From NCBI GenBank assembly GCA_020723405.1, contig DYIY01000009.1, positions 110,427-174,426 on the forward strand: DNA of 64,000 bases. Reading direction: 5' to 3'. Numbering within the stretch: position 1 is the stretch's first letter; each line of letters starts with the position of its first letter. Under the pieces are notes generated by a model, which did not search any database, was not told the DNA's origin, and was given only the letters and a program-made list of their open reading frames with translations. The DNA comes from Thiobacillus denitrificans (GTDB lineage: Bacteria > Pseudomonadota > Gammaproteobacteria > Burkholderiales > Thiobacillaceae). Below, one piece after another: positions 3,345 to 58,943 of the stretch. A program made the position numbers and the translations under genes.

Positions 3345-4545
<1,201 letters not shown>

Positions 4546-26342: not shown

Positions 26343-27302
26343 TCAGTGCAGGCGAAAGAAGTGGGTGTCCGGATGCCGGCGCAGGGCTCGCTGCACGTCC
26401 TTGTCGTCGCTCAGGAAGGCCGGTACTTCCCGGGTCGGGGTGAAGCAGAAGCGTCGGGGCAGGTCGGTGTAGAGGGAACGGGGTGGGGCCGTGCCGGTGA
26501 TTCCCTTGAGCAACTGGCCGCCTCGTTCGCTGTGGTAATAGACCCCGTTGATGCCCAGTTCGTCGCGGATGAAGTGGATGGCGGCCCAGAGCATGGCTTC
26601 GGCCCACAGGGCGCTATAGCGGGTGCGCACGTGGACGCAGTAATCCAGGGTCGTGGCCAGGCTGCATTCCAGGCCGTAGATCTTTGTCGAGGCGCTGGCC
26701 GGGTGACCCGCCGCCAGTTTGCCCCGCGCCCGTTCTTCCAGCCAGGCCACGTTGCGCACCCAGTCGGACTGGATTTCCTCGATGAGGGCACAGTTGGCCG
26801 CCAGATCCACATCCAGGCGGGCCCAGGCCAAGGTGTTGCGTAGACAGGAAACCGGGTGGCCCCAGTAGTTGAAGCGCGACAGGCGGCAGCCCAGAGCCCG
26901 GAAGCGGCGCTCGTGTTCCGTGTTGAAGTTCAGTTGCAGCACCAGGTTGAAACCGGGCCGGGAAATCTGCCGGTGTCGGCGTTCACTGCGTCGCGCGCTG
27001 CCCCACAGGGCCAGGTTGAGAATGAAATGGGACTGCTGGGGATCGTGGTCGTGGAGGGCCAGGTAGGGCGCGTCCAGGGGCCCGTGGCCCCGGCCGGCCA
27101 GCAGGGTGCGCACCCGGGGTTTCTGCAACAGGGGCGCGTAGGGTGTTTGTTTTAGCGCAGCGACGCTGAAGCCCGGGCCAGATGGGCTGCGCTGGCTCAA
27201 GTGCCGCAACAGGCCGATGCTGTAGCGGTCGCGGTAATAGGGAAAGACGGTTCGCTCACCCTGCAGGCAAGCGAGGATTTCCTGGGCAACGTGGAGGTCC
27301 AT
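26343..27302 (-). CDS. Uncharacterised protein (320 aa), downstream of rtcB1 on the same strand
   Basis: Long ORF with no recognised motifs. Start assigned to ATG at 27302 (MDLHVAQEIL...). The ORF track allows a TTG at 27368. Confidence 0.5.
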   Translation of the reverse strand: MDLHVAQEILACLQGERTVFPYYRDRYSIGLLRHLSQRSPSGPGFSVAALKQTPYAPLLQKPRVRTLLAGRGHGPLDAPYLALHDHDPQQSHFILNLALWGSARRSERRHRQISRPGFNLVLQLNFNTEHERRFRALGCRLSRFNYWGHPVSCLRNTLAWARLDVDLAANCALIEEIQSDWVRNVAWLEERARGKLAAGHPASASTKIYGLECSLATTLDYCVHVRTRYSALWAEAMLWAAIHFIRDELGINGVYYHSERGGQLLKGITGTAPPRSLYTDLPRRFCFTPTREVPAFLSDDKDVQRALRRHPDTHFFRLH

Positions 27303-27433
27303 GGGGGAATTCCGTGGTGGTGGTCGGGCATGGGGTAAGGGCGTTGAAGGGGCGGTAATCGCCGGCAAGTGGGGGTTTCATGGCGTTCTCCTTGGGGTGA
27401 AAGTGCCCGCCCCGGTGGGGGCGGGCGGTTGGG

Positions 27434-27631: not shown

Positions 27632-28840
27632 CTACCCCTTCACGCACAGGACCTGTTTCAGGGTATGGACGGGCTCCACCAGATCCCGCTGGTTTTCCAT
27701 CACCTGATCGATGTCCTTGTAGGCGGCCGGAATTTCGTCCACCACCCCGCCGTCCTTGCGGCACTCCACGCCGGCCGTCTGGGCTTCCAGATCGAACCGG
27801 TCGAAGCGGCGCTTGGCGGCGCTGCGGCTCATGCGCCGCCCCGCCCCGTGGGAGCAGGAACAGAAGGACGCCGGGTTGCCCAGCCCGCGCACGATGTAGG
27901 AGCGGGCCCCCATGCTGCCGGGGATGATGCCCAGTTCCCCGGCCCGGGCCGAGATGGCGCCCTTGCGGGTGATGAACAGACGCTCACCGAAGTGCTCCTC
28001 CCGGGCCACGTAGTTGTGGTGGCAGTTGATGGCCTCTTCCTCCAGGCGAAAGCCCGGCAGCAGGGGTTTCATGGCCTCCACGATGGCCGCCATCATGCGG
28101 CTGCGGTTGAGCAGGGCGTAGTCCTGGGCCCATTCCACCGCTTCCACGTAGTCGTCGAACAGATCCGAGCCTTCAGAAAAATAGGCCAGGTCCTGGTCCG
28201 GCAGGCGGATCTGATGGCGGCGCATGTCCTTCCGCGCCGCTTCGATGAAATAGCGGCCCAGCACGTTGCCGATGCCCCGGGAACCGGAGTGCAGCATGAT
28301 CCAGACCCGGTCCGCCTCGTCGAGACAGAGCTCGATGAAGTGGTTGCCGCCCCCCAGGGTGCCGATCTGGCACAGCCAGGTTTCGTTGAAGCGGCGCTGC
28401 ATCTTCATCAGGCCCGGATGCTTGCCGACGATTACGTCCAGCCGGTCGTTAAGCGACCGCCCGATGCGTTGCAGGGCGCTGCCCCGCATGCGGCTGGCCG
28501 CGTGCTGGTTGAAGCCCACCGGGATGGCCGCCTCGATGGCCAGGCGCAGCCCGCGCAGGTTGTCGGGCAGATCGCCGGCCACCAGCGAGGTGCGCACCGC
28601 GTTCATGCCGCAGCCGATGTCCACCCCCACCGCCGCCGGGATGATGGCGTGGAGGGTGGGGATGACGCTGCCCACCGTGGCGCCGATGCCCGCATGCACG
28701 TCGGGCATGGCGGCCACGTGGCCGTGCACGATGGGCAGATCGGCGATGTTGAGCAACTGCCGGAGGGCCTCCGGTTCGATGTCGCGGGTCCAGATCTTGA
28801 CCGGTACGCGACCCTTGTTCAGTTCAATGTAATTTCCCAT
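27632..28840 (-). CDS. rtcB: RNA-splicing ligase RtcB (divergent paralog 1)
   Basis: 402 aa with the RtcB hallmark motifs MPDVHAGIGATVGSVIPT, GNHFIELC, HSGSRGIG and CSHGAGR. More diverged from E. coli RtcB than the second copy at 33068. Confidence 0.93.
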   Translation of the reverse strand: MGNYIELNKGRVPVKIWTRDIEPEALRQLLNIADLPIVHGHVAAMPDVHAGIGATVGSVIPTLHAIIPAAVGVDIGCGMNAVRTSLVAGDLPDNLRGLRLAIEAAIPVGFNQHAASRMRGSALQRIGRSLNDRLDVIVGKHPGLMKMQRRFNETWLCQIGTLGGGNHFIELCLDEADRVWIMLHSGSRGIGNVLGRYFIEAARKDMRRHQIRLPDQDLAYFSEGSDLFDDYVEAVEWAQDYALLNRSRMMAAIVEAMKPLLPGFRLEEEAINCHHNYVAREEHFGERLFITRKGAISARAGELGIIPGSMGARSYIVRGLGNPASFCSCSHGAGRRMSRSAAKRRFDRFDLEAQTAGVECRKDGGVVDEIPAAYKDIDQVMENQRDLVEPVHTLKQVLCVKG

Positions 28841-29194: not shown

Positions 29195-30784
29195 TCAGCC
29201 CGCCTTCACCGCCTCAAAGTTCAACGCAAAACGCGCCAGGTATTTGCGCAGCCGATCTGCATCATTGGCCGACTTCTTGCCCTGGCGGGAAACGGCATAG
29301 AGCTGCCGACCCGCTTCCGACAAGGTGCCACAGCGGCGGCAGGTCTCGATGACGAAGGCCAGTTGGTGGCGATCAAAGAGGTCCAGTTCGTCGGCCTGGT
29401 CACCCAGCAGTTCCGCCACCGGGTCGGGCAGGGGGGTAGCCCTCCAGGTGCGGCGCAGGCGGTCGATCTCTTCGGCCACGTTGGCTTCGTTGATGCGCCC
29501 GGCGGTGCTCAGGGTGGCCATGCGCGTCACCGAGGCGCCCAGCTCGCGGAAATTGCCCCGCCATTGGGCCTGGTGGCTGGCGGCGAAGGCCAGGTAACGG
29601 CGCCGGGCCTCCAGGTTGAAGCGCACCTGCTGGCCCTGTTCCCGGGCGTGGCGTTCCAGTTCGAAATCCAGGTTGGGTTCAATGTCCTCCGGCCGCTGGG
29701 CCAGGCCCGGCAGATCGAAGGTCCACAGGTTGATGCGGGCGAACAGGTCTTCCCGGAAACGGCCTTCCGCCACCCATAGGCGCAGATCCCGGTGGGTGCC
29801 GGCGATGAGCTGGAATTCGCTGTCCACTTCCCGGTCGGCGCCAAAGGGGAAGAAGCGCTTCTCCTCGATGGCCTTGAGCAGCATGGCCTGTTCGTCCAGG
29901 CCCAGCTCGCCGATTTCATCCAGGAACAGCAGGCCCCCGTGGGCGGCCCGCAGCAGCCCGGGCCGTTCGGTCTGGGCGCCGGTGAAGGCGCCCTTCACGT
30001 GACCGAACAGGGTGGACATGGCCGAGTCGCCGCGCAGGGTGGCGCAGTTCACCTCGATGAAGCGGCCGGCCAGCCGTTGCCGCTGGCGCTTCAGTTCGTA
30101 CACCCGGCGGGCCAGGAAGGATTTGCCGGCGCCGGTGGGCCCCACCAGCAGCATGGGGGCCCGGGAGCGCCCGGCCACCTGTTCGATGCGCTCGATCATG
30201 CGGTTGAAGGCCGGGTTGCGGGTGGCGATGCCGGATTTCAGCAGGGACACGTTGTCCGTGTGTTCCCGGGCGAAGCGTTGGGCGATCTTGTCGTAGCGGG
30301 ACAGGTCCAGGTCGATGATCTCGTAGCTGCCGATGCTGTTTGCGATCTCTTTCTTGCGCGGCGGCGAAGTCTGCACCAGCCGGGCTGGCAGGGTGCGGGC
30401 TTCGGCCAGGAGGAACCAGCAGATCTGCGCCACGTGGGTGCCGGTGGTGATGTGGATCAGGTAGTCCTCGTGTTCCGGGTCGAAGGGGTAGGCCTGGGCG
30501 AAATCCAGCAGGCTGGTGTAGACCTCCTGGAAGTCCCAGGGGTCGCGCAGCTCCCGTTCCACCCGATTCACCTGGGTCTCCGGGGACACCGCGCCGATGT
30601 CCAGACGGACCCGTTCGGCCAGGCCCCGGCTGCGGGCGTCATGCATCAGCTCCAGGCGATGGACCACCAGGTTCTCCTGCTGACAGAGAGCCACGCTGGG
30701 CCGCCACTTGTCCCAACGGCCCGCGCCTTTGCCGCCGTAGTCCAGCTGGGTGCCGAGGAAGCCGAAAACCACGGTGCGCTTCAT
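29195..30784 (-). CDS. rtcR: Sigma54-dependent transcriptional regulator RtcR (CARF-domain enhancer-binding protein)
   Basis: 529 aa, collinear with E. coli RtcR. The CARF-like N-terminus is MKRTVVFGFLGTQLDYGG...WRPSVALCQQE. AAA+ Walker A GPTGAGKS and GAFTGA motif HVKGAFTGA are present. C-terminus is ...NDADRLRKYLARF. Confidence 0.93.
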   Translation of the reverse strand: MKRTVVFGFLGTQLDYGGKGAGRWDKWRPSVALCQQENLVVHRLELMHDARSRGLAERVRLDIGAVSPETQVNRVERELRDPWDFQEVYTSLLDFAQAYPFDPEHEDYLIHITTGTHVAQICWFLLAEARTLPARLVQTSPPRKKEIANSIGSYEIIDLDLSRYDKIAQRFAREHTDNVSLLKSGIATRNPAFNRMIERIEQVAGRSRAPMLLVGPTGAGKSFLARRVYELKRQRQRLAGRFIEVNCATLRGDSAMSTLFGHVKGAFTGAQTERPGLLRAAHGGLLFLDEIGELGLDEQAMLLKAIEEKRFFPFGADREVDSEFQLIAGTHRDLRLWVAEGRFREDLFARINLWTFDLPGLAQRPEDIEPNLDFELERHAREQGQQVRFNLEARRRYLAFAASHQAQWRGNFRELGASVTRMATLSTAGRINEANVAEEIDRLRRTWRATPLPDPVAELLGDQADELDLFDRHQLAFVIETCRRCGTLSEAGRQLYAVSRQGKKSANDADRLRKYLARFALNFEAVKAG

Positions 30785-30790
30785 GGGCGC

Positions 30791-30841
30791 TTATCCAAAT
30801 AGATAAATGACGAGTGCAAATTCTACGGATGTTGGAATTTG
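30791..30841. promoter_or_regulatory. Candidate RtcR upstream activating sequences (inverted repeats)
   Basis: TTATC-N6-GATAA (30791-30806) and CAAATTC-N11-GAATTTG (30817-30841), in an atypically AT-rich divergent region between rtcR and the sigma54 promoter. Confidence 0.35.
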
Positions 30842-30883
30842 TCAGGGCATGTTTTTTACCGGCAAGAGAAATTAATAATGTTT

Positions 30884-30896
30884 AATCAATGCGTTA
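30884..30896 (+). promoter_or_regulatory. Candidate IHF site (AATCAATGCGTTA; WATCAANNNNTTR)
   Basis: Matches the IHF core. Located between the candidate UAS and the sigma54 -24 element, the usual geometry for EBP-dependent promoters. Confidence 0.4.
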
Positions 30897-30924
30897 GAGA
30901 TTTGTTGCCGGCTGCCGCCCGGGT

Positions 30925-30941
30925 TGGCACGGTCCTCGCAA
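30925..30941 (+). promoter_or_regulatory. Sigma54 promoter -24/-12 (TGGCACG-GTCC-TCGCA)
   Basis: GG-N10-GC spacing is exact, with a strong match to TGGCACG-N4-TTGCW. Divergent from rtcR. Predicted TSS about 30951. Confidence 0.75.
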
Positions 30942-31059
30942 TACCTGTCCCGATCGCTGAATTGCTGCAATGGCCCACGGGCCGGGGTTTCCAGGCCCCG
31001 CCGGTGCGGTGGGACCGGGCTCAGGCCCGTCGTCGTGCCGTATGCCGCCGCAAGGAGGA

Positions 31060-31210
31060 GGCGGTTGTTGCGAGCCTGGGTGGCTCGCCGGGTTCGATTC
31101 CCGGCTCGCAAGCCTTGGATAGCTCAGAGGGTAGAGCAACCGTGCAAACGGTGTGTCGCGGGTTCGACTCCCGCTCCAAACCTGTCCTGATAAGACAGAT
31201 CGTGTCATTG
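31060..31210 (+). ncRNA. Tandem tRNA-like elements in the 5' leader (candidate Y-RNA/YrlA-like tRNA mimic)
   Basis: Module 1 (31068-31109): acceptor-like GCGAG/CTCGC stacked on T-arm CCGGG-TTCGATT-CCCGG (a minihelix). Module 2 (31113-31181): 5-bp acceptor (TTGGA/TCCAA), D-arm GCTC-AGAGGGTA-GAGC, anticodon arm replaced by ACCGT-GCAA-ACGGT (GNRA-capped stem), and T-arm GCGGG-TTCGACT-CCCGC. A CTGTC-CUGAUAA-GACAG hairpin follows (31184-31200). Confidence 0.5.
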
Positions 31211-31426
31211 CAGTACCCGCCGGTTGCGGCATGCGCAAGCACCCGCCACCGGTTCCGCCGGTTCCCGGTCCGCAAGGACGGCAAGGAACGGGCGGGCCGG
31301 GCACCCCGCCCTCCGGCCCCCGGGTCGGGCGGAGGGTGAACCGGCCCCCCGAACCTCCCCGCCCCTGTCGCCCGAAGGGCTCGTGGGACCGGTGCCCGCC
31401 GGCCACTTCAGAAAAAGGAACAAGTC

Positions 31427-32575
31427 ATGTTGAAGCGTTTTGTGGTGAAGAAGAACGAACGGGGCGCCCTGCTGAAGGACGGCGACTTCGAGCGCATCCT
31501 GGATGCCGGCCGCCACTATTTCTGGGACCCCTTGAACCACCTGTCCCTGGTGGTGTGGAAGCTGGACGCGCCCATGGATGACCGGGACGTGGTGGATTAC
31601 CTGGTCCGCCACGATCCCCAGACGGCCGACGCCTGCTTCGAAAAAATGGAACTGGGCGAGGACGAGGCCGGCCTGCGCTATGAGAACGACGTGCTGGTGG
31701 AGGTGCTGCCCCCGGGAACCCGGCGTTATCACTGGAAAGGCGTGATCGTCCATCGCCTGGATAAAGTGGACCTGCGCCAGGGGTACGGCGTGGCGCCGGA
31801 ACTGGCCGCCCGTCTGCTCCAGCCGGCCTTGCACGGACGGGCCGTGGCGGGCCTGGCCGGCTTGCTGATCGCCCAGGTGCCCGCCTACCACGTGGGCGTG
31901 CTCAAGGTGGATGGCCGGGTGGAGCGGCTCCTGGGACCGGGCGTGGAAGCCTTCTGGCGGTTCAACCGGGATGTCCAGGTGGAGCTGGTGGATACCCGCC
32001 TGCAGAACATGGAAGTCACCGGCCAGGAAATCCTCTCCCGGGACAAGGTGAGCCTGCGTCTGAACCTGGCGGCCACCTGGCGTTACAGCGACGTGGAGCG
32101 GGCCCACGGCCAACTGGTGAAACCGGCGGAACACCTGTACCGGGAACTCCAGTTCGGCCTGCGCGCCGCGGTAGGCACTCGCGACCTGGATGCGCTGCTG
32201 GAAAACAAGCAGGTCATCGACGAGGTGGTGGGTCAGCACGTGCGCAGCAAGCTGGCCGGCTTCGGCATGGAAGTGGGTAGCGTGGGCGTGAAGGACATCA
32301 TCCTGCCCGGCGAGATGAAGACCATCCTGGCCCAGGTGGTGGAAGCGGAGAAGTCCGCCCAGGCCAACGTCATCCGCCGCCGGGAGGAAACGGCCGCCAC
32401 CCGTTCCCTGCTCAACACCGCCAAGGTGATGGAGGACAACCCCGTCGCCCTGCGCCTGAAGGAACTGGAAACCCTGGAAAGGGTGGCTGAACGCATCGAC
32501 CGCATCTCCGTGTTCGGCGGCCTGGACCAGGTGTTGAGCGGGTTGGTGAATCTGCGTTCGCCGTCCTCGGGTTAG
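31427..32575 (+). CDS. SPFH/band-7 (stomatin/prohibitin-like) domain protein, cytoplasmic, no TM segment
   Basis: 382 aa with the SPFH core GVKDIILPGEMKTILAQVVEAEKSAQANVIRRREETAATRSLLNTAKVMEDNPVALRLKELETL. AAGGAA RBS present. Confidence 0.85.
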   Translation: MLKRFVVKKNERGALLKDGDFERILDAGRHYFWDPLNHLSLVVWKLDAPMDDRDVVDYLVRHDPQTADACFEKMELGEDEAGLRYENDVLVEVLPPGTRRYHWKGVIVHRLDKVDLRQGYGVAPELAARLLQPALHGRAVAGLAGLLIAQVPAYHVGVLKVDGRVERLLGPGVEAFWRFNRDVQVELVDTRLQNMEVTGQEILSRDKVSLRLNLAATWRYSDVERAHGQLVKPAEHLYRELQFGLRAAVGTRDLDALLENKQVIDEVVGQHVRSKLAGFGMEVGSVGVKDIILPGEMKTILAQVVEAEKSAQANVIRRREETAATRSLLNTAKVMEDNPVALRLKELETLERVAERIDRISVFGGLDQVLSGLVNLRSPSSG

Positions 32576-32577
32576 TC

Positions 32578-33063
32578 ATGCACGCCTGCCCCGCCGGGGC
32601 AGGCGTGGGGGAGAATGAAGTGAAGACATACAAGAGCGGAAAACAGCGTCGCGCTGAAATCAAGGCCGCACGGCTGAGCAAGCAGCATCGCGCATCCCAC
32701 CGGGTTGATGGCTTCAGGGTCCGACCCGAGGGAACCGAGCCGGTGAACCCGGCACGACTGCGCCCCAACAACAGCTACGGCGTACCCGACTTCGTCTGGC
32801 GCGGGTACTACAAGGACATGGCGTTCCGTTGCGTGGATTGTGGCGTCGAGCAGGTCTGGACCGCCCAGCGCCAGCGCTGGTGGTATGAAGTGGCCCAGGG
32901 AGACGTATACAGCACGGCTCGCCGTTGCGCCCCCTGCAGGCTCAAGGAGCGCCAGCGGAAGGAGGATGCACGCCGTGCCTGGAGGGAAGGCCTGGAAAGA
33001 AAGGCGGCGCGGCAGTTACGACCAGGGTGGGCAGGAATGGCCCCCAAGAACTTGGATAGGTGA
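32578..33063 (+). CDS. Zinc-ribbon (2x CxxC) basic protein
   Basis: FRCVDCGVEQVW...ARRCAPCRLKERQRK, Arg/Lys-rich. Alternative GTG start at 32620 lies just after the hairpin and RBS. The stop is 4 nt before rtcB2. Confidence 0.5.
   Translation: MHACPAGAGVGENEVKTYKSGKQRRAEIKAARLSKQHRASHRVDGFRVRPEGTEPVNPARLRPNNSYGVPDFVWRGYYKDMAFRCVDCGVEQVWTAQRQRWWYEVAQGDVYSTARRCAPCRLKERQRKEDARRAWREGLERKAARQLRPGWAGMAPKNLDR
32581..32607 (+). other. Perfect 12-bp GC-rich hairpin (CACGCCTGCCCC-GCC-GGGGCAGGCGTG) between the SPFH and zinc-ribbon genes
   Basis: Directly observed. There is no U-tract, so it is not a canonical terminator. It abuts a GGGGGAG RBS. Confidence 0.6.
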
Positions 33064-33067
33064 AAAG

Positions 33068-34285
33068 ATGGAACATCAGATTCTCGAAGTCGAAAACGGC
33101 AAGCCCATCAAGCTGTGGACCCAAGGCGTCCCGGTGGAGGACGCTGCCCGCCAGCAACTGATCAACACCGCCCGCATGCCCTTCATCTTCCGCCACCTGG
33201 CGGTGATGCCCGACGTGCACCTGGGCAAGGGTTCCACCATCGGCAGCGTCATCCCCACCCAGGGGGCCATCATCCCCGCCGCCGTCGGCGTGGACATCGG
33301 CTGCGGCATGATGGCCGCCCGGACCACCCTGAGCGCCACGGATTTGCCGGACAACCTGCACGGCCTGCGTACAGCCATCGAAAAGGCCGTGCCCCACGGC
33401 CGCACGGTGGGCCGCGGCAAGCGTGATGCCGGAAGCTGGGAAAACCCGCCCGAGAAGGTGGACGACATGTGGGCCGCCCTGTTGCCCGGCTTCGAGCGCA
33501 TCGTGGCCAAGTACCCGCGCCTGAAGAACACCAACCAGTACAAGCACCTGGGTACCCTGGGCACCGGCAACCACTTCATCGAAGTCTGCCTGGACGAGGC
33601 CGACCGGGTCTGGTTCATGCTGCACACCGGTTCCCGCGGCGTGGGCAACGCCATCGGCAGCCTGTTCATCGAACTGGCCCAAGCCGACATGCGCGGCCAC
33701 CTGGCCAACCTGCCGGACAAGGATCTCGCCTATTTCGAGGAAGGCAGCCCCCACTTCGACGACTACGTGGAAGCCGTGGGCTGGGCCCAGGATTTTGCCC
33801 GCCGCAACCGGGCAGTGATGATGGACCACGTCATCGCCGCCGCCCGCAGCATCATCGACAAGCCCTTCAGCGCCGACGTGGAAGCGGTGAACTGTCACCA
33901 CAACTACGTCCAGCGGGAGACCCACTTCGGCGCCGAAGTACTGGTGACGCGCAAGGGCGCCGTGTCGGCGAAGAAGGGCGAACTGGGCATCATCCCCGGC
34001 TCCATGGGCGCCAGGAGCTACATCGTGCGCGGCCTGGGCAACGAGGAAGCGTTTTGCTCATGCAGCCACGGCGCCGGTCGCACCATGAGCCGCAACGAAG
34101 CCAAACGCCGCTTCACGGTGGAAGACCAGATCCGCGCCACGGAAGGCGTGGAATGCCGCAAGGACAAGGAAGTCATCGACGAGATCCCCATGGCCTACAA
34201 GGACATCGACGCGGTGATGCACGCCCAGCGGGAGCTGGTGGAAGTGGTGCATACCTTGCGGCAGGTGGTGTGTGTGAAAGGGTGA
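33068..34285 (+). CDS. rtcB: RNA-splicing ligase RtcB (E. coli-type paralog 2)
   Basis: 405 aa, near-collinear with E. coli RtcB. MEHQILEVENGKPIKLWTQGVPVEDAARQQLINTARMPFIFRHLAVMPDVHLGKGSTIGSVIPT... and ends ...YTLRQVVCVKG. Confidence 0.96.
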   Translation: MEHQILEVENGKPIKLWTQGVPVEDAARQQLINTARMPFIFRHLAVMPDVHLGKGSTIGSVIPTQGAIIPAAVGVDIGCGMMAARTTLSATDLPDNLHGLRTAIEKAVPHGRTVGRGKRDAGSWENPPEKVDDMWAALLPGFERIVAKYPRLKNTNQYKHLGTLGTGNHFIEVCLDEADRVWFMLHTGSRGVGNAIGSLFIELAQADMRGHLANLPDKDLAYFEEGSPHFDDYVEAVGWAQDFARRNRAVMMDHVIAAARSIIDKPFSADVEAVNCHHNYVQRETHFGAEVLVTRKGAVSAKKGELGIIPGSMGARSYIVRGLGNEEAFCSCSHGAGRTMSRNEAKRRFTVEDQIRATEGVECRKDKEVIDEIPMAYKDIDAVMHAQRELVEVVHTLRQVVCVKG

Positions 34286-34372: not shown

Positions 34373-35407
34373 ATGATTGAAATCGATGGCGCCGCCGGGG
34401 AAGGCGGCGGCCAGATTCTGCGCACCGCCCTGACCCTGGCCATGATCACCGGCCAGGCCATCCGTATGGTGGCTATCCGTGCCCGACGGCCCAAGCCCGG
34501 TTTGCTGCGACAACACCTGACTGCGGTGGAGGCGGCGACGGCCATTTGCCGTGCCCGGGTGGAGGGGGCCGCGGTGGGCAGCCAGACCCTGGAGTTTCAT
34601 CCGGGCCCAATCCGTGGTGGCGACTATCGCTTCGCCATCGGCACCGCGGGCAGTTGCACCCTGGTGTTGCAGACCGTGTTGCCCGCCCTGTGGTTTGCCG
34701 ACGGCCCCAGCACCTTTGCGGTGAGCGGCGGCACCCACAATCCGGCCGCCCCACCGGCCGACTTTCTGCGGCGGTCCTGGCTGCCCGTGGTGGCGGCCAT
34801 GGGCGTGGACATGGAACTGGAGCTGCTGCGCCATGGTTTCTACCCCGCTGGAGGGGGCGAGATGTTGGCCCGGGTGCGCCCCGCGTCCCCCCTGACGCCC
34901 TGGCAGGCGCCCGCCCGGGCGCCTGCCGGCAAACCCCGCGCCGTCGCCGTGGTGGCGGGCGTCCCGGTGGATGTGGCGCGGCGGGAACTGGCCCGGCTCC
35001 AGCAGCACCTGGGTGACATGGAAACCGAGGTCCGCGTCCTGTCTTCCCGGGAAGGCCCCGGCAACGCGCTGCTGGTGGAAATTCCCTTGTCCGCCCACGG
35101 CGAAGTGTTCACTGGCCTTGGCGAACGGGGCCTGCCCGCCGAGACCGTGGCCGACCGGCTGGCCCGTACGGTGCGGGGCTTCCTGGACAGCGACGCCAGC
35201 GTGGGCGAGCACCTGGCCGACCAGTTGCTCCTGCCCCTGGCTTTGGCGGGGGGCGTTGGTTTCACGGCACCGGTGTTGTCGTCCCACGCCCGCACCAATA
35301 TGGCGGTGATCCAGCGCTTTTTGCCTGTGGAATTTGCGGTGGAAGAAAGGGAGGGCGTTGTGAAGGTGGGCGTGGTGCGACACGCGTTAACCGTGGCGGG
35401 GCCGTAA
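34373..35407 (+). CDS. rtcA: RNA 3'-terminal phosphate cyclase RtcA
   Basis: 344 aa. MIEIDGAAGEGGGQILRTALTLAMITGQ...LLRQHLTAVEAATAIC...DYRFAIGTAGSCTLVLQTVLPALWFA matches RtcA including the active-site His region. Confidence 0.95.
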   Translation: MIEIDGAAGEGGGQILRTALTLAMITGQAIRMVAIRARRPKPGLLRQHLTAVEAATAICRARVEGAAVGSQTLEFHPGPIRGGDYRFAIGTAGSCTLVLQTVLPALWFADGPSTFAVSGGTHNPAAPPADFLRRSWLPVVAAMGVDMELELLRHGFYPAGGGEMLARVRPASPLTPWQAPARAPAGKPRAVAVVAGVPVDVARRELARLQQHLGDMETEVRVLSSREGPGNALLVEIPLSAHGEVFTGLGERGLPAETVADRLARTVRGFLDSDASVGEHLADQLLLPLALAGGVGFTAPVLSSHARTNMAVIQRFLPVEFAVEEREGVVKVGVVRHALTVAGP

Positions 35408-35716: not shown

Positions 35717-37678
35717 ATGCCCCGCATTGCTTACTACGAAGCCAACATTCAGGATTTTTTGGTTGCTGATGAAGATGCAATTCTCGGCGCGTTGTCTATG
35801 CAACATGGCTTTGCCTTGGAACACCTGCAAAAGCATGCGTGGCAGGGCCAGATTCGGATTCTGCGCAGCATTCTTTCTCCCACCCAGTTGGGCTGGATCT
35901 ACTTCGAGTTTTCGATTCCCAGGATGGGCAAAAGGGCCGATGTTGTTTTACTGACAGGCGGCGTGGTGTTCGTCATTGAGTTCAAAGTCGGTTCGCACAG
36001 CTTTGATAGCTACGCGGTTGAACAGGCGCATGACTACGCGCTTGATCTCAAGAACTTTCACCGAGGCAGTCACAATCTCCCAATTGTTCCGATTCTGATT
36101 CCTACAGCAGCGCCGCTTCAGCCAGTACCGGCGATAAAATGGGCTGCCGACCAGGTCGCCGAACCGCTGTGCCTTTCTGCCGCAAACTTGCCTGAAGCGA
36201 TTGAGATGGCAGAAAAACAATGGTCGGCAGAACCTATTGATGCCATTGCCTGGTCGCAATCGGGCTATCAACCTACCCCCACCATCGTCGAAGCCGCTCT
36301 GGCTTTGTATCGACAGCACGATGTCAAAGAAATTACCCGATCAGAAGCAGGCGCAGACAACCTTGGTCTGACAGCAAGGCGCGTTGAGCAGATCATTGAG
36401 CATGCCAAGTCAAACAGCCGTAAAGCCATCTGCTTTATTACTGGCGTACCAGGCGCAGGAAAGACGCTAGCAGGCCTAAACATCGCGACATCGCGTGCCG
36501 AGAGACACTCTGACGAGCACGCGGTTTTCCTGTCCGGCAATGGGCCACTGGTCGATGTCCTCCGGGAGGCACTTGCTCGGGACAAGGCCGAGCGGGAGGA
36601 TATCCCGCGAACACGTGCGTACCGGGAAGTCTCAACCTTCGTGCAAAACATCCATCATTTCCGGGATGAGGCTCTCGAAAGCAGGAACCCACCGATCGAG
36701 AAGGTGGTGATATTCGATGAGGCCCAGCGGGCCTGGAACCGCGACATGGCGAGCAAGTTCATGCAGCAAAAGCGCGGGCATGCCACCTTCAATATGTCTG
36801 AGCCGGCTTTTCTCCTTGACGCGATGAACCGCCACAGAGACTGGTGTGTGGTGGTCTGTCTAATTGGCGGTGGCCAAGAGATCAATACGGGTGAGGCTGG
36901 CCTAGCCGAATGGATAACTGTGTTGCGCGACCAGCATCCAGACTGGGACGTTCATGTTTCAAGCCGTCTGGACGACCGTGATTACATCTGGGACAAAGAA
37001 CTGTCCATGGAGTTGTCGAAGGGTTCGGCACAATGGGATGAATCCCTGCACCTCGGGGTATCAATCAGGTCGTTCCGCGCGGAGGCCTTGTCTGAATTCG
37101 TTGGGCATGTGGTGGACAACAGGCCTGATCAGGCATGCGTGACCTACCAGGCGATAGCGGACAAGTACCCGATCATTCTGACGCGCAGTTTGGCGGAGGC
37201 CCGTTCTTGGCTGCAGGCCAAGTCTCGCGGCAGTGAGCGTTATGGCCTTACAGCCTCATCTGGAGCAAATCGTCTGCGACCAGATGGTATCTGGATCAAG
37301 TCAAAGATAGATGCCCCTGTATGGTTTTTGAATGATAAGACGGATGTCCGTTCGTCGTACTACCTCGAAGAAACTGCGAGTGAATTCGACATCCAGGGAC
37401 TTGAGCTTGACTGGGCCTGCGTTGGTTGGGATGCCGACTTTCGTCGCGGTGATGATGAGTGGCAATACTTCAGTTTTCGAGGCACAAAGTGGCAGCGAAT
37501 GAATTCGCCAGATCGCCAGCTTTATCTCAAGAACGCCTATCGGGTACTGCTGACCCGCGCTCGTCAAGGCATGGCGATCTTTGTTCCACCTGGCGACCCT
37601 TCCGATCCGACAAGAGCGCCGCAGGTCTATGACCGTATCTATGAGTATCTCCAGCTTTGTGGAATTTCCAGTAGTTGA
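35717..37678 (+). CDS. DUF2075-type protein: N-terminal PD-(D/E)xK-like nuclease plus SF1-helicase/Schlafen-like P-loop ATPase
   Basis: 653 aa. N-terminal GKRADVVLLTGGVVFVIEFK (D...ExK nuclease-like motif), central Walker A ITGVPGAGKT, Walker B-like VVIFDEAQ, and C-terminal RVLLTRARQGMAIFVP. GC content (about 50-52%) is clearly lower than the surroundings. Confidence 0.7.
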   Translation: MPRIAYYEANIQDFLVADEDAILGALSMQHGFALEHLQKHAWQGQIRILRSILSPTQLGWIYFEFSIPRMGKRADVVLLTGGVVFVIEFKVGSHSFDSYAVEQAHDYALDLKNFHRGSHNLPIVPILIPTAAPLQPVPAIKWAADQVAEPLCLSAANLPEAIEMAEKQWSAEPIDAIAWSQSGYQPTPTIVEAALALYRQHDVKEITRSEAGADNLGLTARRVEQIIEHAKSNSRKAICFITGVPGAGKTLAGLNIATSRAERHSDEHAVFLSGNGPLVDVLREALARDKAEREDIPRTRAYREVSTFVQNIHHFRDEALESRNPPIEKVVIFDEAQRAWNRDMASKFMQQKRGHATFNMSEPAFLLDAMNRHRDWCVVVCLIGGGQEINTGEAGLAEWITVLRDQHPDWDVHVSSRLDDRDYIWDKELSMELSKGSAQWDESLHLGVSIRSFRAEALSEFVGHVVDNRPDQACVTYQAIADKYPIILTRSLAEARSWLQAKSRGSERYGLTASSGANRLRPDGIWIKSKIDAPVWFLNDKTDVRSSYYLEETASEFDIQGLELDWACVGWDADFRRGDDEWQYFSFRGTKWQRMNSPDRQLYLKNAYRVLLTRARQGMAIFVPPGDPSDPTRAPQVYDRIYEYLQLCGISSS

Positions 37679-57681: not shown

Positions 57682-58943
57682 TGGGCCATCTGTTCCCCCT
57701 GGCCTGGAAGAGCGCCTGGAACCGCCGCTACAGCCTGGGTCTCACCGTGCTGGCCATCGCCCTGTCGGTGACCCTGCTGCTGGGCATCGAACGGCTGCGC
57801 CAGGACGCCCGGGCCGGCTTCGAACAGTCCATTTCCGGCACCGACCTGGTGGTGGGGGCCCGCTCCAGCCCGGTGCAGCTCATGCTCTACAGCGTCTTCC
57901 GCATGGGTGAAGCCACCCAGAACATGGGCTGGCAGAGCGCCCGGGAACTGGCCGCCCACCCGGCGGTGGCCTGGAGCATTCCCCTCTCCCTGGGCGACTC
58001 CCACCAGGGCTACCCGGTGGTGGGCACCAGCCAGGACTACTTCCGCCATTTCCACTATGGCGAAGGGCTGGCCCTGGCCTTCGCCCAGGGCCAGCCCTTC
58101 GCCGGCCTGTGGGACGCCGTGCTGGGCGCCGAAGTGGCCCGCGGCCTGGGCTACAAACTGGGTGACCCCATCACCCTGAGCCATGGCCTGGGTGGGGAAG
58201 GCATGGCCGAACACGGCGACAAACCCTTCCGGGTGGTGGGCATCCTGGCCCCTACCGGCACGCCGGTGGACCGCAGCGTGCACATCCAATTGGAATCCCT
58301 GGAAGCCATCCATCTGGACTGGCAAGGCGGCGCCCCCCTGCCCGGGCTGAACATCCCCCCGGACCTGGTGAAGAAATTCGACCTCACCCCCAAGAGCATC
58401 ACCGCCCTGCTGGTGGGCCTGCACAGCCGGGCCCGGGTTTTCGCCATGCAAAGGCAGATCGCCGCCTATCCGGACGAAGCCCTCATGGCCGTGCTGCCCG
58501 GCGTGGCCCTGTCCCAGCTCTGGGACGTGGTGGGGGTGGTGGAAAAGGCTCTGCTGGCCATTTCCGCCCTGGTGGTGGCCGTGGGTCTGGCCGGCCTGGT
58601 GGCCGTGGTGCTCTCCGGCCTGGACCAGCGCCGCCGGGAACTGGCCATCCTGCGCGCCAACGGGGCCCGGCCCCGGGACATCTTCCTGCTCCTGGCCCTG
58701 GAAGGGGGCCTGCTCACCCTGGCCGGCCTGGTCCTGGGGATCAGCCTGCTGGCCGGTCTGGTGTTCTTCCTGGCACCCTGGGTGCAGGCCCACTATGGCC
58801 TGGTCCTGGGCCACACCCCCCCGGGCCTGGCGGAACTCCGGCTGCTGGGCTGGGTCCTGGGGGTGGGCCTGGCCGCCAGCCTGTTTCCCGGCTGGCGGGC
58901 CTACCGGCTTTCCCTGGCCGACGGCCTGACTCCCCGTACATGA
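57681..58943 (+). CDS. ABC transporter permease, FtsX-like (ZrgC-like)
   Basis: Start overlaps the ATPase stop (TGATG). FtsX-type 4-TM topology with a large periplasmic loop. Confidence 0.85.
   Translation: MGHLFPLAWKSAWNRRYSLGLTVLAIALSVTLLLGIERLRQDARAGFEQSISGTDLVVGARSSPVQLMLYSVFRMGEATQNMGWQSARELAAHPAVAWSIPLSLGDSHQGYPVVGTSQDYFRHFHYGEGLALAFAQGQPFAGLWDAVLGAEVARGLGYKLGDPITLSHGLGGEGMAEHGDKPFRVVGILAPTGTPVDRSVHIQLESLEAIHLDWQGGAPLPGLNIPPDLVKKFDLTPKSITALLVGLHSRARVFAMQRQIAAYPDEALMAVLPGVALSQLWDVVGVVEKALLAISALVVAVGLAGLVAVVLSGLDQRRRELAILRANGARPRDIFLLLALEGGLLTLAGLVLGISLLAGLVFFLAPWVQAHYGLVLGHTPPGLAELRLLGWVLGVGLAASLFPGWRAYRLSLADGLTPRT

Follow-up and report, generated by a model that had tools for sequence, protein, structure and literature searches.

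The 64,000-nucleotide (nt) stretch of Thiobacillus denitrificans DNA analysed here (the window; GenBank assembly GCA_020723405.1, contig DYIY01000009.1, forward-strand positions 110,427 to 174,426) carries an RNA-repair (rtc) operon, in which the genes of a slipin (Band-7/SPFH protein), a treble-clef zinc protein (zf_Tbcl), the RNA ligase RtcB and the RNA 3'-phosphate cyclase RtcA follow one another, with rtcR, encoding a CARF-domain sigma-54 activator, located divergently upstream (Table 1). An rtc operon of the RtcR/sigma-54 type is marked by a divergently oriented activator gene together with a -24/-12 promoter ahead of rtcB and rtcA, and the locus has both. The 642-nt gap between rtcR (minus strand) and the slipin gene (plus strand) contains the whole of a tandem tRNA-like element (31068-31198), located ~120 nt 3' of the promoter. 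An earlier inspection of the letters alone (the sequence-only reading) had proposed that deliberate tRNA mimicry takes place in this leader, in the Y RNA position of an rtc operon; in operons of the Salmonella type this position is occupied by Y RNA genes. The observation holds and lies well beyond chance: every sequence feature claimed is present, at most 2 nt from where it had been placed, and the mimicry is conserved in the predicted leaders of related operons. The interpretation that accompanied it was right in spirit and is partly supported.

Table 1. Genes, promoter and RNA features of the rtc locus, in window coordinates
Feature	Coordinates	Strand	Evidence and remarks
rtcR, CARF-domain sigma-54 activator	29195..30784	-	Pfam RtcR (4.7e-85) and Sigma54_activat (2.8e-48); divergent from the leader
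Sigma-54 (-24/-12) promoter, TGGCACGGTCCTCGCA	30925..30940	+	pattern match; predicted transcription start ~30951
5' hairpin A, helix with GGGG/CCCC tip	30977..31005	+	RNAalifold; helices 1-2 94-95% paired, double changes at 8 of 10 pairs
5' hairpin B, 15 bp, conserved GUCG bulge	31006..31041	+	12 of 15 pairs changed on both sides; 91.8% of cells paired
Conserved single-stranded motif, AUGCCGCC	31042..31049	+	nearly invariant in the alignments, all clades
Module 1, tRNA-derived, without anticodon arm	31068..31111	+	acceptor of up to 7 bp, mini D-like hairpin (GG loop), T-arm
Module 1 acceptor, TTGCGAG/CTCGCAA	31068-74/31105-11	+
Module 1 T-arm, CCGGG-TTCGATT-CCCGG	31088-31104	+
Module 2, four-arm tRNA-like domain	31115..31179	+	Rfam tRNA match, ARAGORN, model R1 123.8 bits
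Module 2 acceptor, TTGGA/TCCAA	31115-19/31175-79	+	5 bp
Module 2 D-arm, TAGCTCAGAGGGTAGAGC	31120-37	+	form GCTC-AGAGGGTA-GAGC
Module 2 anticodon stem, ACCGT/ACGGT	31139-43/31148-52	+	GCAA cap at 31144-47
Module 2 T-arm, GCGGG-TTCGACT-CCCGC	31158-74	+
Anticodon-stem-loop-like hairpin, CTGTC-CTGATAA-GACAG	31182..31198	+	directly 3' of module 2; all 5 pairs covary
GCAGUA motif	31210..31215	+	nearly invariant, unpaired; conserved in Rhodocyclales, Burkholderia and Pseudomonas loci
3' domain, 185 nt, long irregular helix	31219..31403	+	RNAalifold
3' domain closing pairs, GCCGGU	31219-24/31398-31403	+	end ~10 nt 5' of the Shine-Dalgarno sequence
3' domain helix, 9 bp	31247-55/31386-94	+	9 of 9 pairs covary
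Slipin/Band-7 (SPFH) gene	31427..32575	+	Pfam Band_7, 3e-29; the gene that marks the b7a-tRNA association
zf_Tbcl (treble-clef zinc) protein gene	32578..33063	+	Pfam PF13451, 3.1e-11
RtcB RNA ligase gene	33068..34285	+	Pfam RtcB, 4e-129
RtcA RNA 3'-phosphate cyclase gene	34373..35407	+	Pfam RTC, 4e-81

Anatomy of the tandem tRNA-like element

The element is composed of two tRNA-derived modules and a hairpin. Module 1 had been described as an acceptor/T-arm minihelix; its acceptor and T-arm stand, and the bare minihelix does not, as a small D-like hairpin with a GG loop is inserted between the two. Module 2 is a complete four-arm domain, which possesses U8, A14 and a variable loop of 5 nt (GTGTC) and is matched by the Rfam tRNA model RF00005 with 40.6 bits (gathering score 29; E-value 3.9e-05 over the 64-kb window), three anticodon-loop positions being deleted in the match; ARAGORN reports it as 'tRNA-???' with a 2-nt anticodon. 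The two T-arms share an 11-mer T-box, GGTTCGANTCC, whose only two copies in the window both fall within the element, against 0.17 expected, and none of 100 shuffled sequences reaches two. The hairpin with a 5-bp stem and a 7-nt loop, which the sequence-only reading had put 2 nt further downstream (31184-31200), is likewise real. At module 1 Rfam gave only matches below threshold (mascRNA-type, 17.3 bits; T-arm of tmRNA, the transfer-messenger RNA, 14 bits), and a permissive search of the region 30700-31500 revealed nothing further above noise. Neither the tRNA-like element nor the rest of the leader has a family in Rfam 15.

Conservation and covariation in slipin loci

A genome scan with the slipin, which has more than 7,800 homologues, returned 80 loci with slipins 61-79% identical to it from beta- and gammaproteobacteria, namely Rhodocyclales (Accumulibacter, Azoarcus, Dechloromonas, Azonexus), Burkholderia, Ralstonia, other Burkholderiales, Pseudomonas, Chitiniphilus, Formivibrio and Silanimonas. 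In nearly all of them a motif scan detected two T-boxes ~70-75 nt apart, 240-440 nt 5' of the slipin start codon; the tandem nature of the element is upheld. A covariance model (R1), built from 20 loci and spanning the T-arm of module 1, the complete module 2 and the downstream hairpin, found the element in 77 of the 80 loci, always on the strand of the genes (76 loci and the window at E ≤ 1e-11; locus L043 appeared in a wider search only), and the window contains a single copy. In the 48 loci with a recognizable promoter the 3' end of the element is situated 214-280 nt 5' of the slipin start codon.

The sequence-only reading had named missing covariation among orthologous leaders as an argument against itself; covariation proved to be strong. 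In the 77-sequence alignment, which was fitted to R1 and hence favours the structure, 97.2% of pair cells hold standard pairs, a value reached in 0 of 500 shuffles (81.4% after shuffling), and 20 of the 29 pairs are changed on both sides; when pair partners were slid by 1-3 columns, pairing fell to 34-47%. The same helices were recovered by RNAalifold from a plain MAFFT alignment. Covarying pairs are found in the anticodon stem of module 2 (5/5), the downstream hairpin (5/5), the acceptor (4/5) and T stem (3/5) of module 2 and the T-arm of module 1 (3/5), and the D stem of module 2 is invariant and therefore uninformative in this respect. In the acceptor of module 2 four pairs are solid, with G-C exchanged for C-G among them in 28 loci, and a fifth forms in 50 of 76. 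The acceptor stems of module 1 are unrelated in sequence between clades and too variable for an in-register MAFFT alignment to be usable, and they were assessed by the best pairing 7-mer with strands swapped between loci as a control: all seven positions pair in 28 of 67 loci and at least six in 66, as opposed to 5.7% and 50% with the swapped 3' strands.

The nucleotides that form the elbow and core of a tRNA are conserved as well (U8, A14, the GG of the D-loop, UUCRA in the T-loop and the 5-nt variable loop), and both modules keep the GG in their D-type loop and UUCRA in their T-loop. In Pseudomonas the inferred 5' strand of the module 1 acceptor leads, at canonical spacing, into TA-GCTC…, with a complete D-arm and an anticodon arm capped by a tetraloop, and both modules are four-arm tRNA-likes there. 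In 20 of 67 loci (e.g., L004, 3' of position 3669, L005, L008, L009, L011, L019, L034 and L036) the acceptor of module 1 has a discriminator plus CCA (N-CCA) on its 3' side, and CCA occurs one nucleotide earlier in 8 more; Pseudomonas and Burkholderia lack it. It may be left over from a tRNA ancestor or mark a genuine 3' end that arises by processing, and together with the acceptor/T-arm it suggests processing by the tRNA maturation machinery.

A structural RNA rather than a decoding tRNA

The statement that module 2 cannot be a decoding tRNA holds, in view of its GCAA cap in the window and of the orthologues, whose anticodons vary or give way to tetraloops. Its anticodon-arm loop is 7 nt long in 42 of the 77 loci, with the triplets CAU, GAU, AAU, GGU, UAU, AGU, CGU, ACG and others, and in the remaining loci a tetraloop (GNRA or UUCG) caps the arm, in many cases after a sixth closing pair. 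The downstream hairpin behaves similarly: 46 of its 77 copies have a 7-nt loop, mostly of the form YU-NNN-A-(A/C), and the Burkholderia copies have a GCAA tetraloop. The loop CUGAUAA in the window is thus an anticodon-type loop, and its likeness to tRNA-Ile(GAU), pointed out in the sequence-only reading, is coincidental, since the loop triplet differs between loci. We did not find a consistent link between loop type and the presence of zf_Tbcl: Burkholderia, devoid of zf_Tbcl, has tetraloops, and several Rhodocyclales devoid of it keep 7-nt loops.

A pair of genuine tRNA genes, or decaying tRNA pseudogenes that an integrated element left behind, might be suspected from the above-threshold Rfam tRNA score, from the ARAGORN calls for orthologues with 7-nt loops, which are tRNA-Ile, Met, Thr or Phe (others receive '???'), and from the tRNA-Arg call in P. 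aeruginosa PAO1. With a canonical bacterial tRNA module 2 indeed shares the cloverleaf, standard D- and T-arms and the 5-nt variable loop. It differs from it in the 4-nt anticodon loop of the window copy, in having a 4-5-bp acceptor in place of 7 bp, in having no CCA after it, in being embedded in a predicted mRNA leader and in not keeping an anticodon among orthologues. Stems held by compensatory changes next to a drifting loop point to a structural RNA, neither decoding nor decaying, and decay is further excluded by the conservation of the element at a fixed position relative to slipin in 77 of 80 orthologous loci from two proteobacterial classes; altogether we regard the tRNA gene or pseudogene explanation as very improbable. 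Many genomes are likely to carry the element mis-annotated as tRNA-Ile, Met, Thr or Phe.

The loops allow one more explanation, namely that the RNA is a decoy or sensor for tRNA-targeting ribotoxins: anticodon nucleases would cleave its two loops of anticodon type, and the fragments, ending in 2',3'-cyclic phosphate, would bind the CARF domain of RtcR (a positive feedback) or titrate the toxin. RtcR is activated by fragments of tRNA that end in a cyclic phosphate, and a role as competitive inhibitor was proposed for YrlA's tRNA-like domain (PMC7790460); loops of the form YU-NNN-R-M, 7 nt long, are present in the anticodon arm as well as in the downstream hairpin of many loci. Such a role is nevertheless hard to reconcile with the tetraloops that replace one or both loops in the window, Burkholderia and Pseudomonas, with the lack of conserved triplets and with an RNA that is apparently made only when RtcR is already active, and Salmonella YrlA remains uncleaved under inducing conditions (PMC7790460). 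We consider it improbable.

The promoter and the extended leader

The sigma-54 box TGGCAYG-N4-YYGCW was found in 48 loci, 65-154 nt (mostly 120-150 nt) 5' of the tRNA-like element. The loose sigma-54 pattern matches the window twice against 1.27 matches expected, which is the chance level; the second match is TGGCACCCTGGGTGCA at 58771-58786 (plus strand). No sigma-70-like promoter and no plus-strand intrinsic terminator were detected in the rtcR-slipin gap, so the modules are most simply regarded as part of a ~480-nt 5' leader of the RtcR-dependent transcript and, judging by this arrangement, would be co-transcribed with the operon. The leader shows no conservation at the level of open reading frames and strong base-pair covariation.

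The tRNA-like element occupies only a part of this leader. Proceeding from the 5' end, the order is two hairpins, the motif AUGCCGCC, the two tandem tRNA elbows, the anticodon-arm-like hairpin, GCAGUA and the 185-nt 3' domain, and the structure is conserved with covariation from Rhodocyclales to Pseudomonas. The flanking structures were obtained by RNAalifold on plain MAFFT alignments of 25 loci. The two 5' hairpins together have 93.0% of cells paired compared with 78.4% in shuffled alignments, with double changes at 20 of 25 pairs, and the 3' domain 94.2% compared with 79.7%, with double changes at 24 of 34 pairs; as the structures were derived from the alignments on which they were tested, the contrast with the controls is inflated, yet the margin is still large. 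For the single-stranded motifs AUGCCGCC and GCAGUA, which flank the core, no pairing partners were found when these were sought; in other Burkholderiales GCAGUA is replaced by a hairpin GGUC-GCAA-GACC. The whole ~480-nt leader is a structured RNA supported by covariation, and in this extended form it may be undescribed so far.

The position within an mRNA leader raises the question of a cis-acting role, in which the operon would be controlled after initiation, the modules serving as sites for RNase P and 3' processing that set mRNA stability and the 3' domain tuning the translation of slipin, with mascRNA on MALAT1 and tRNA-like punctuation as conceivable precedents. This could account for the predicted location of the modules in a transcribed leader with no terminator ahead of the first gene, for a leader structured over its whole length up to ~10 nt from the Shine-Dalgarno sequence, for the mascRNA-type match at module 1, weak as it is, and for the N-CCA found after module 1 in many loci. 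It would not explain why loci having neither rtcR nor the sigma-54 promoter also keep the tRNA-like core, nor the conservation of elbow and core nucleotides, which goes well past what a cleavage signal requires, and the closing helix of the 3' domain includes neither the Shine-Dalgarno sequence nor the start codon. As the principal function we find a cis-acting leader rather unlikely, although clearly less so than the decoy; it is, moreover, compatible with a role in trans, i.e., with the RNA acting as a partner of the proteins encoded in the operon, which is the explanation we prefer.

Probable identity with b7a-tRNA and the proposed role

Burroughs and Aravind reportedly wrote in the abstract of their 2016 paper of 'SPFH/Band-7 modules' paired with 'a novel tRNA-like molecule'. 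The preprint of Wang et al. (2018, bioRxiv 10.1101/312249), which relies on that work, describes b7a-tRNA as a predicted noncoding RNA closely similar to tRNA, encoded beside a Band-7/SPFH gene and RtcB in place of Rsr/YrlA, and as seemingly interchangeable with YrlA/Rsr in function. It was the only publication retrieved by our literature search for b7a-tRNA or for SPFH together with RtcB. The element in the window corresponds to this secondary description in both respects, being encoded beside a Band-7/SPFH gene of an RtcB repair operon, with synteny in 77 loci, and resembling tRNA both by its Rfam match and by its covariation-supported cloverleaf; as far as the description goes, we noticed no difference. 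We therefore lean, with moderate confidence, towards the view that the element is the local copy of b7a-tRNA, a class that is already known and distinct from YrlA, and that it serves the slipin–RtcB repair system as its RNA partner.

Pseudomonas aeruginosa apparently has a counterpart, orthology being judged by position alone. PA4581.1, annotated as 'tRNA-Arg4', lies between rtcR (PA4581) and PA4582, has no CCA, carries G at position 20 and an odd D-loop, and was detected by quantitative reverse transcription PCR at about half the level of canonical tRNAs (PMC13637947, 2026); that paper treats it as 'tRNA-Arg4' and makes no mention of b7a-tRNA. Like the element in the window, it is located between rtcR and the slipin-rtcB-rtcA cluster and is devoid of CCA; the differences are its annotation as an ordinary tRNA and the two four-arm modules of Pseudomonas loci, as compared with a module 1 without anticodon arm in the window. 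In related Pseudomonas loci module 2 has the loops CCACGAA and CCACGAU, and the 'anticodon' ACG would explain the call of tRNA-Arg.

The following scheme may be suggested for the system. RtcR turns the operon on, and the tRNA-like RNA would be made with it. Its two L-shaped elbows would serve as surfaces for binding proteins and not for decoding, and modules 1 and 2 probably recruit enzymes of tRNA processing, such as RNase P and 3' trimming activities, by which small RNAs would be excised from the leader. The sequence-only reading had likewise considered a substrate of RNase P, of the CCA-adding enzyme or of TruB, or else a ligand for the CARF domain of RtcR, as roles that the RNA might have. 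The RNA could be a partner of the operon proteins, namely a soluble SPFH protein that would form rings or cages, the basic treble-clef zinc protein and RtcB. By presenting or mimicking tRNA, it might let the ligase complex assemble on damaged tRNA-like substrates, be directed to them or be gated for them. The logic would be that of Y RNA/YrlA with Ro (Rsr), as rtc operons of the Salmonella type contain Rsr and Y RNAs instead of slipin and the tRNA-like RNA; by this analogy, a slipin–RtcB RNA partner comparable to Y RNA with Ro is what the element most likely is.

The predicted structure of the slipin loosely supports such a role. The model (predicted local distance difference test score, pLDDT, 68.6 overall and 80-90 for residues 1-190) shows beta repeats at the N-terminus, which are confident, as well as an SPFH domain and a long helix; the DSSP read-out gives no predicted transmembrane helix. 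Foldseek matched it to cage- or ring-forming proteins (stomatin, HflK/C, prohibitin, erlin and flotillin; E-values 1e-11 to 1e-7) and, more weakly, to the major vault protein (E-value 2.9e-8 over 430 alignment columns; template modelling scores 0.34 and 0.19); the predicted resemblance to the latter is one of architecture. One may tentatively suppose that the tRNA-like pair could be the core of a larger, undescribed structured RNA of ~450-480 nt, which would assemble with the soluble SPFH protein into a bacterial vault-like RNA-protein particle for RNA repair; we consider this rather unlikely.

Several observations weigh against the identification and the proposed partnership. According to Wang et al. 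(bioRxiv 10.1101/312249), b7a-tRNA itself lacks experimental validation, and the identity with it rests on a secondary description. The level of PA4581.1 is the same with and without Rtc induction (PMC13637947), which is hard to square with synthesis driven by RtcR alone, unless the RNA, once processed, is highly stable or is transcribed there from a promoter of its own. In the minimum free energy (MFE) fold of the window, a hairpin GAGCC-UGGGU-GGCUC outcompetes pairs 4-7 of the module 1 acceptor (-22.7 against -15.5 to -17.1 kcal/mol), and in place of CCA this module is followed by G-CCU (flank 31112-31115). Many loci that bear the RNA lack zf_Tbcl and rtcA, whose products are consequently not obligatory partners. 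Finally, an RNA that stays unprocessed would remain joined to the mRNA, and roles in cis and in trans could not be told apart by sequence alone.

Gene neighbourhood and implications

Among the 80 slipin loci, rtcR is found divergently upstream in 52, zf_Tbcl follows slipin in ~30, and rtcB lies downstream of slipin in most, wherever the locus is long enough. A phage origin receives no support from viral contigs, of which 1 in 2.9 million encodes the slipin, in a copy cut at the contig end. In the window, a second RtcB paralogue (27632-28840, minus strand) is encoded downstream of rtcR on the same strand and is 57-61% identical (at the level of tblastn) to the RtcB of most related loci; it is followed by an open reading frame of 341 amino acids (26343-27368, minus strand) with no Pfam match. 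Directly after rtcA there is a gene of a Schlafen group-3-like DNA/RNA helicase (35717-37678, plus strand; PF09848, 4.5e-78). Relatives of Schlafen are linked to tRNA cleavage, and the helicase gene may be part of the same conflict island.

One more feature concerns the Burkholderiales slipin–RtcB loci devoid of rtcR and of the promoter, where 2-10 canonical tRNA genes (Glu, Asp, Phe, Asn, Pro, His, Lys, Leu, Gln, Arg and others) are arrayed on the same strand ~1-3 kb 5' of the element (L043, L060, L059, L054, L063, L064, L037, L075, L070, L065, L072, L076, L034 and L036). L070 has, in this order, a tRNA array, an HNH endonuclease, the b7a RNA, slipin, RtcB and an AAA ATPase. In Anabaena, TrcR co-represses a 26-tRNA operon together with rtcB and the genes of a slipin, an HNH endonuclease and an AAA ATPase (PMC10272220).

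A tRNA look-alike encoded in a conserved manner by the repair operon itself offers a direct handle on the targeting of the RtcB ligase, since the tRNA-like RNA replaces the Ro–Y RNA pair. To our knowledge, RtcB/RtcA repair operons are widespread, and their bacterial substrates and cofactors are largely unknown. The alignment and the covariance model R1 could seed an Rfam family, and experiments on b7a-tRNA should take into account the much larger structured leader around its tRNA-like part. Annotation of such elements as ordinary tRNAs, e.g., tRNA-Arg4 of P. aeruginosa, distorts both tRNA gene counts and experiments (PMC13637947).

Comparison with YrlA and other tRNA mimics

Besides b7a-tRNA, the element can be compared with mascRNA of MALAT1 and with the tRNA-like domain of tmRNA, which also mimic the acceptor and T-arm without decoding and are possibly recognized by RNase P. 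The scores for both are below threshold, the window lacks the alanine identity pair (G3:U70) and CCA, and the group of organisms and the context are unrelated.

The comparison with YrlA bears directly on the sequence-only reading, which had called the modules YrlA-like: the operon-encoded tRNA mimicry stands, and membership in the family does not. A YrlA or bacterial Y RNA, binding a Ro60 (Rsr) orthologue encoded elsewhere, might be suggested by the position, which is that of yrlA in the Salmonella operon, by the occasional swaps between b7a-tRNA and YrlA and between Rsr and Band-7 (Wang et al., bioRxiv 10.1101/312249), and by an Rfam YrlA (RF02553) match that spans T-arm 1 and D-arm 2. This match, with 22.9 bits (E-value 0.027 on the 801-nt region), is far under the gathering score of 69, and none of the eight proteins scanned at the locus has a TROVE/Rsr domain, the remaining window proteins not having been scanned for it. 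A Y-RNA-like terminal stem (30969-78/31206-15), which appeared in the MFE fold of the window only, was rejected, as a manual check of two alignments showed that it is not kept in L005, L008, L019 and L026. The topology is inverted, too. In YrlA the acceptor stem forms a closed loop, there is no anticodon loop, and the anticodon side opens into the Ro-binding stem (bioRxiv 10.1101/312249), whereas the element in the window has a closed anticodon stem, an acceptor end open into the remaining RNA, and two modules. All this leaves membership in the YrlA family hardly credible. What the element has in common with YrlA is the tRNA-like D/T elbow with conserved nucleotides of the tertiary contacts, the non-decoding nature and the location in an RtcR-controlled RNA-repair operon.

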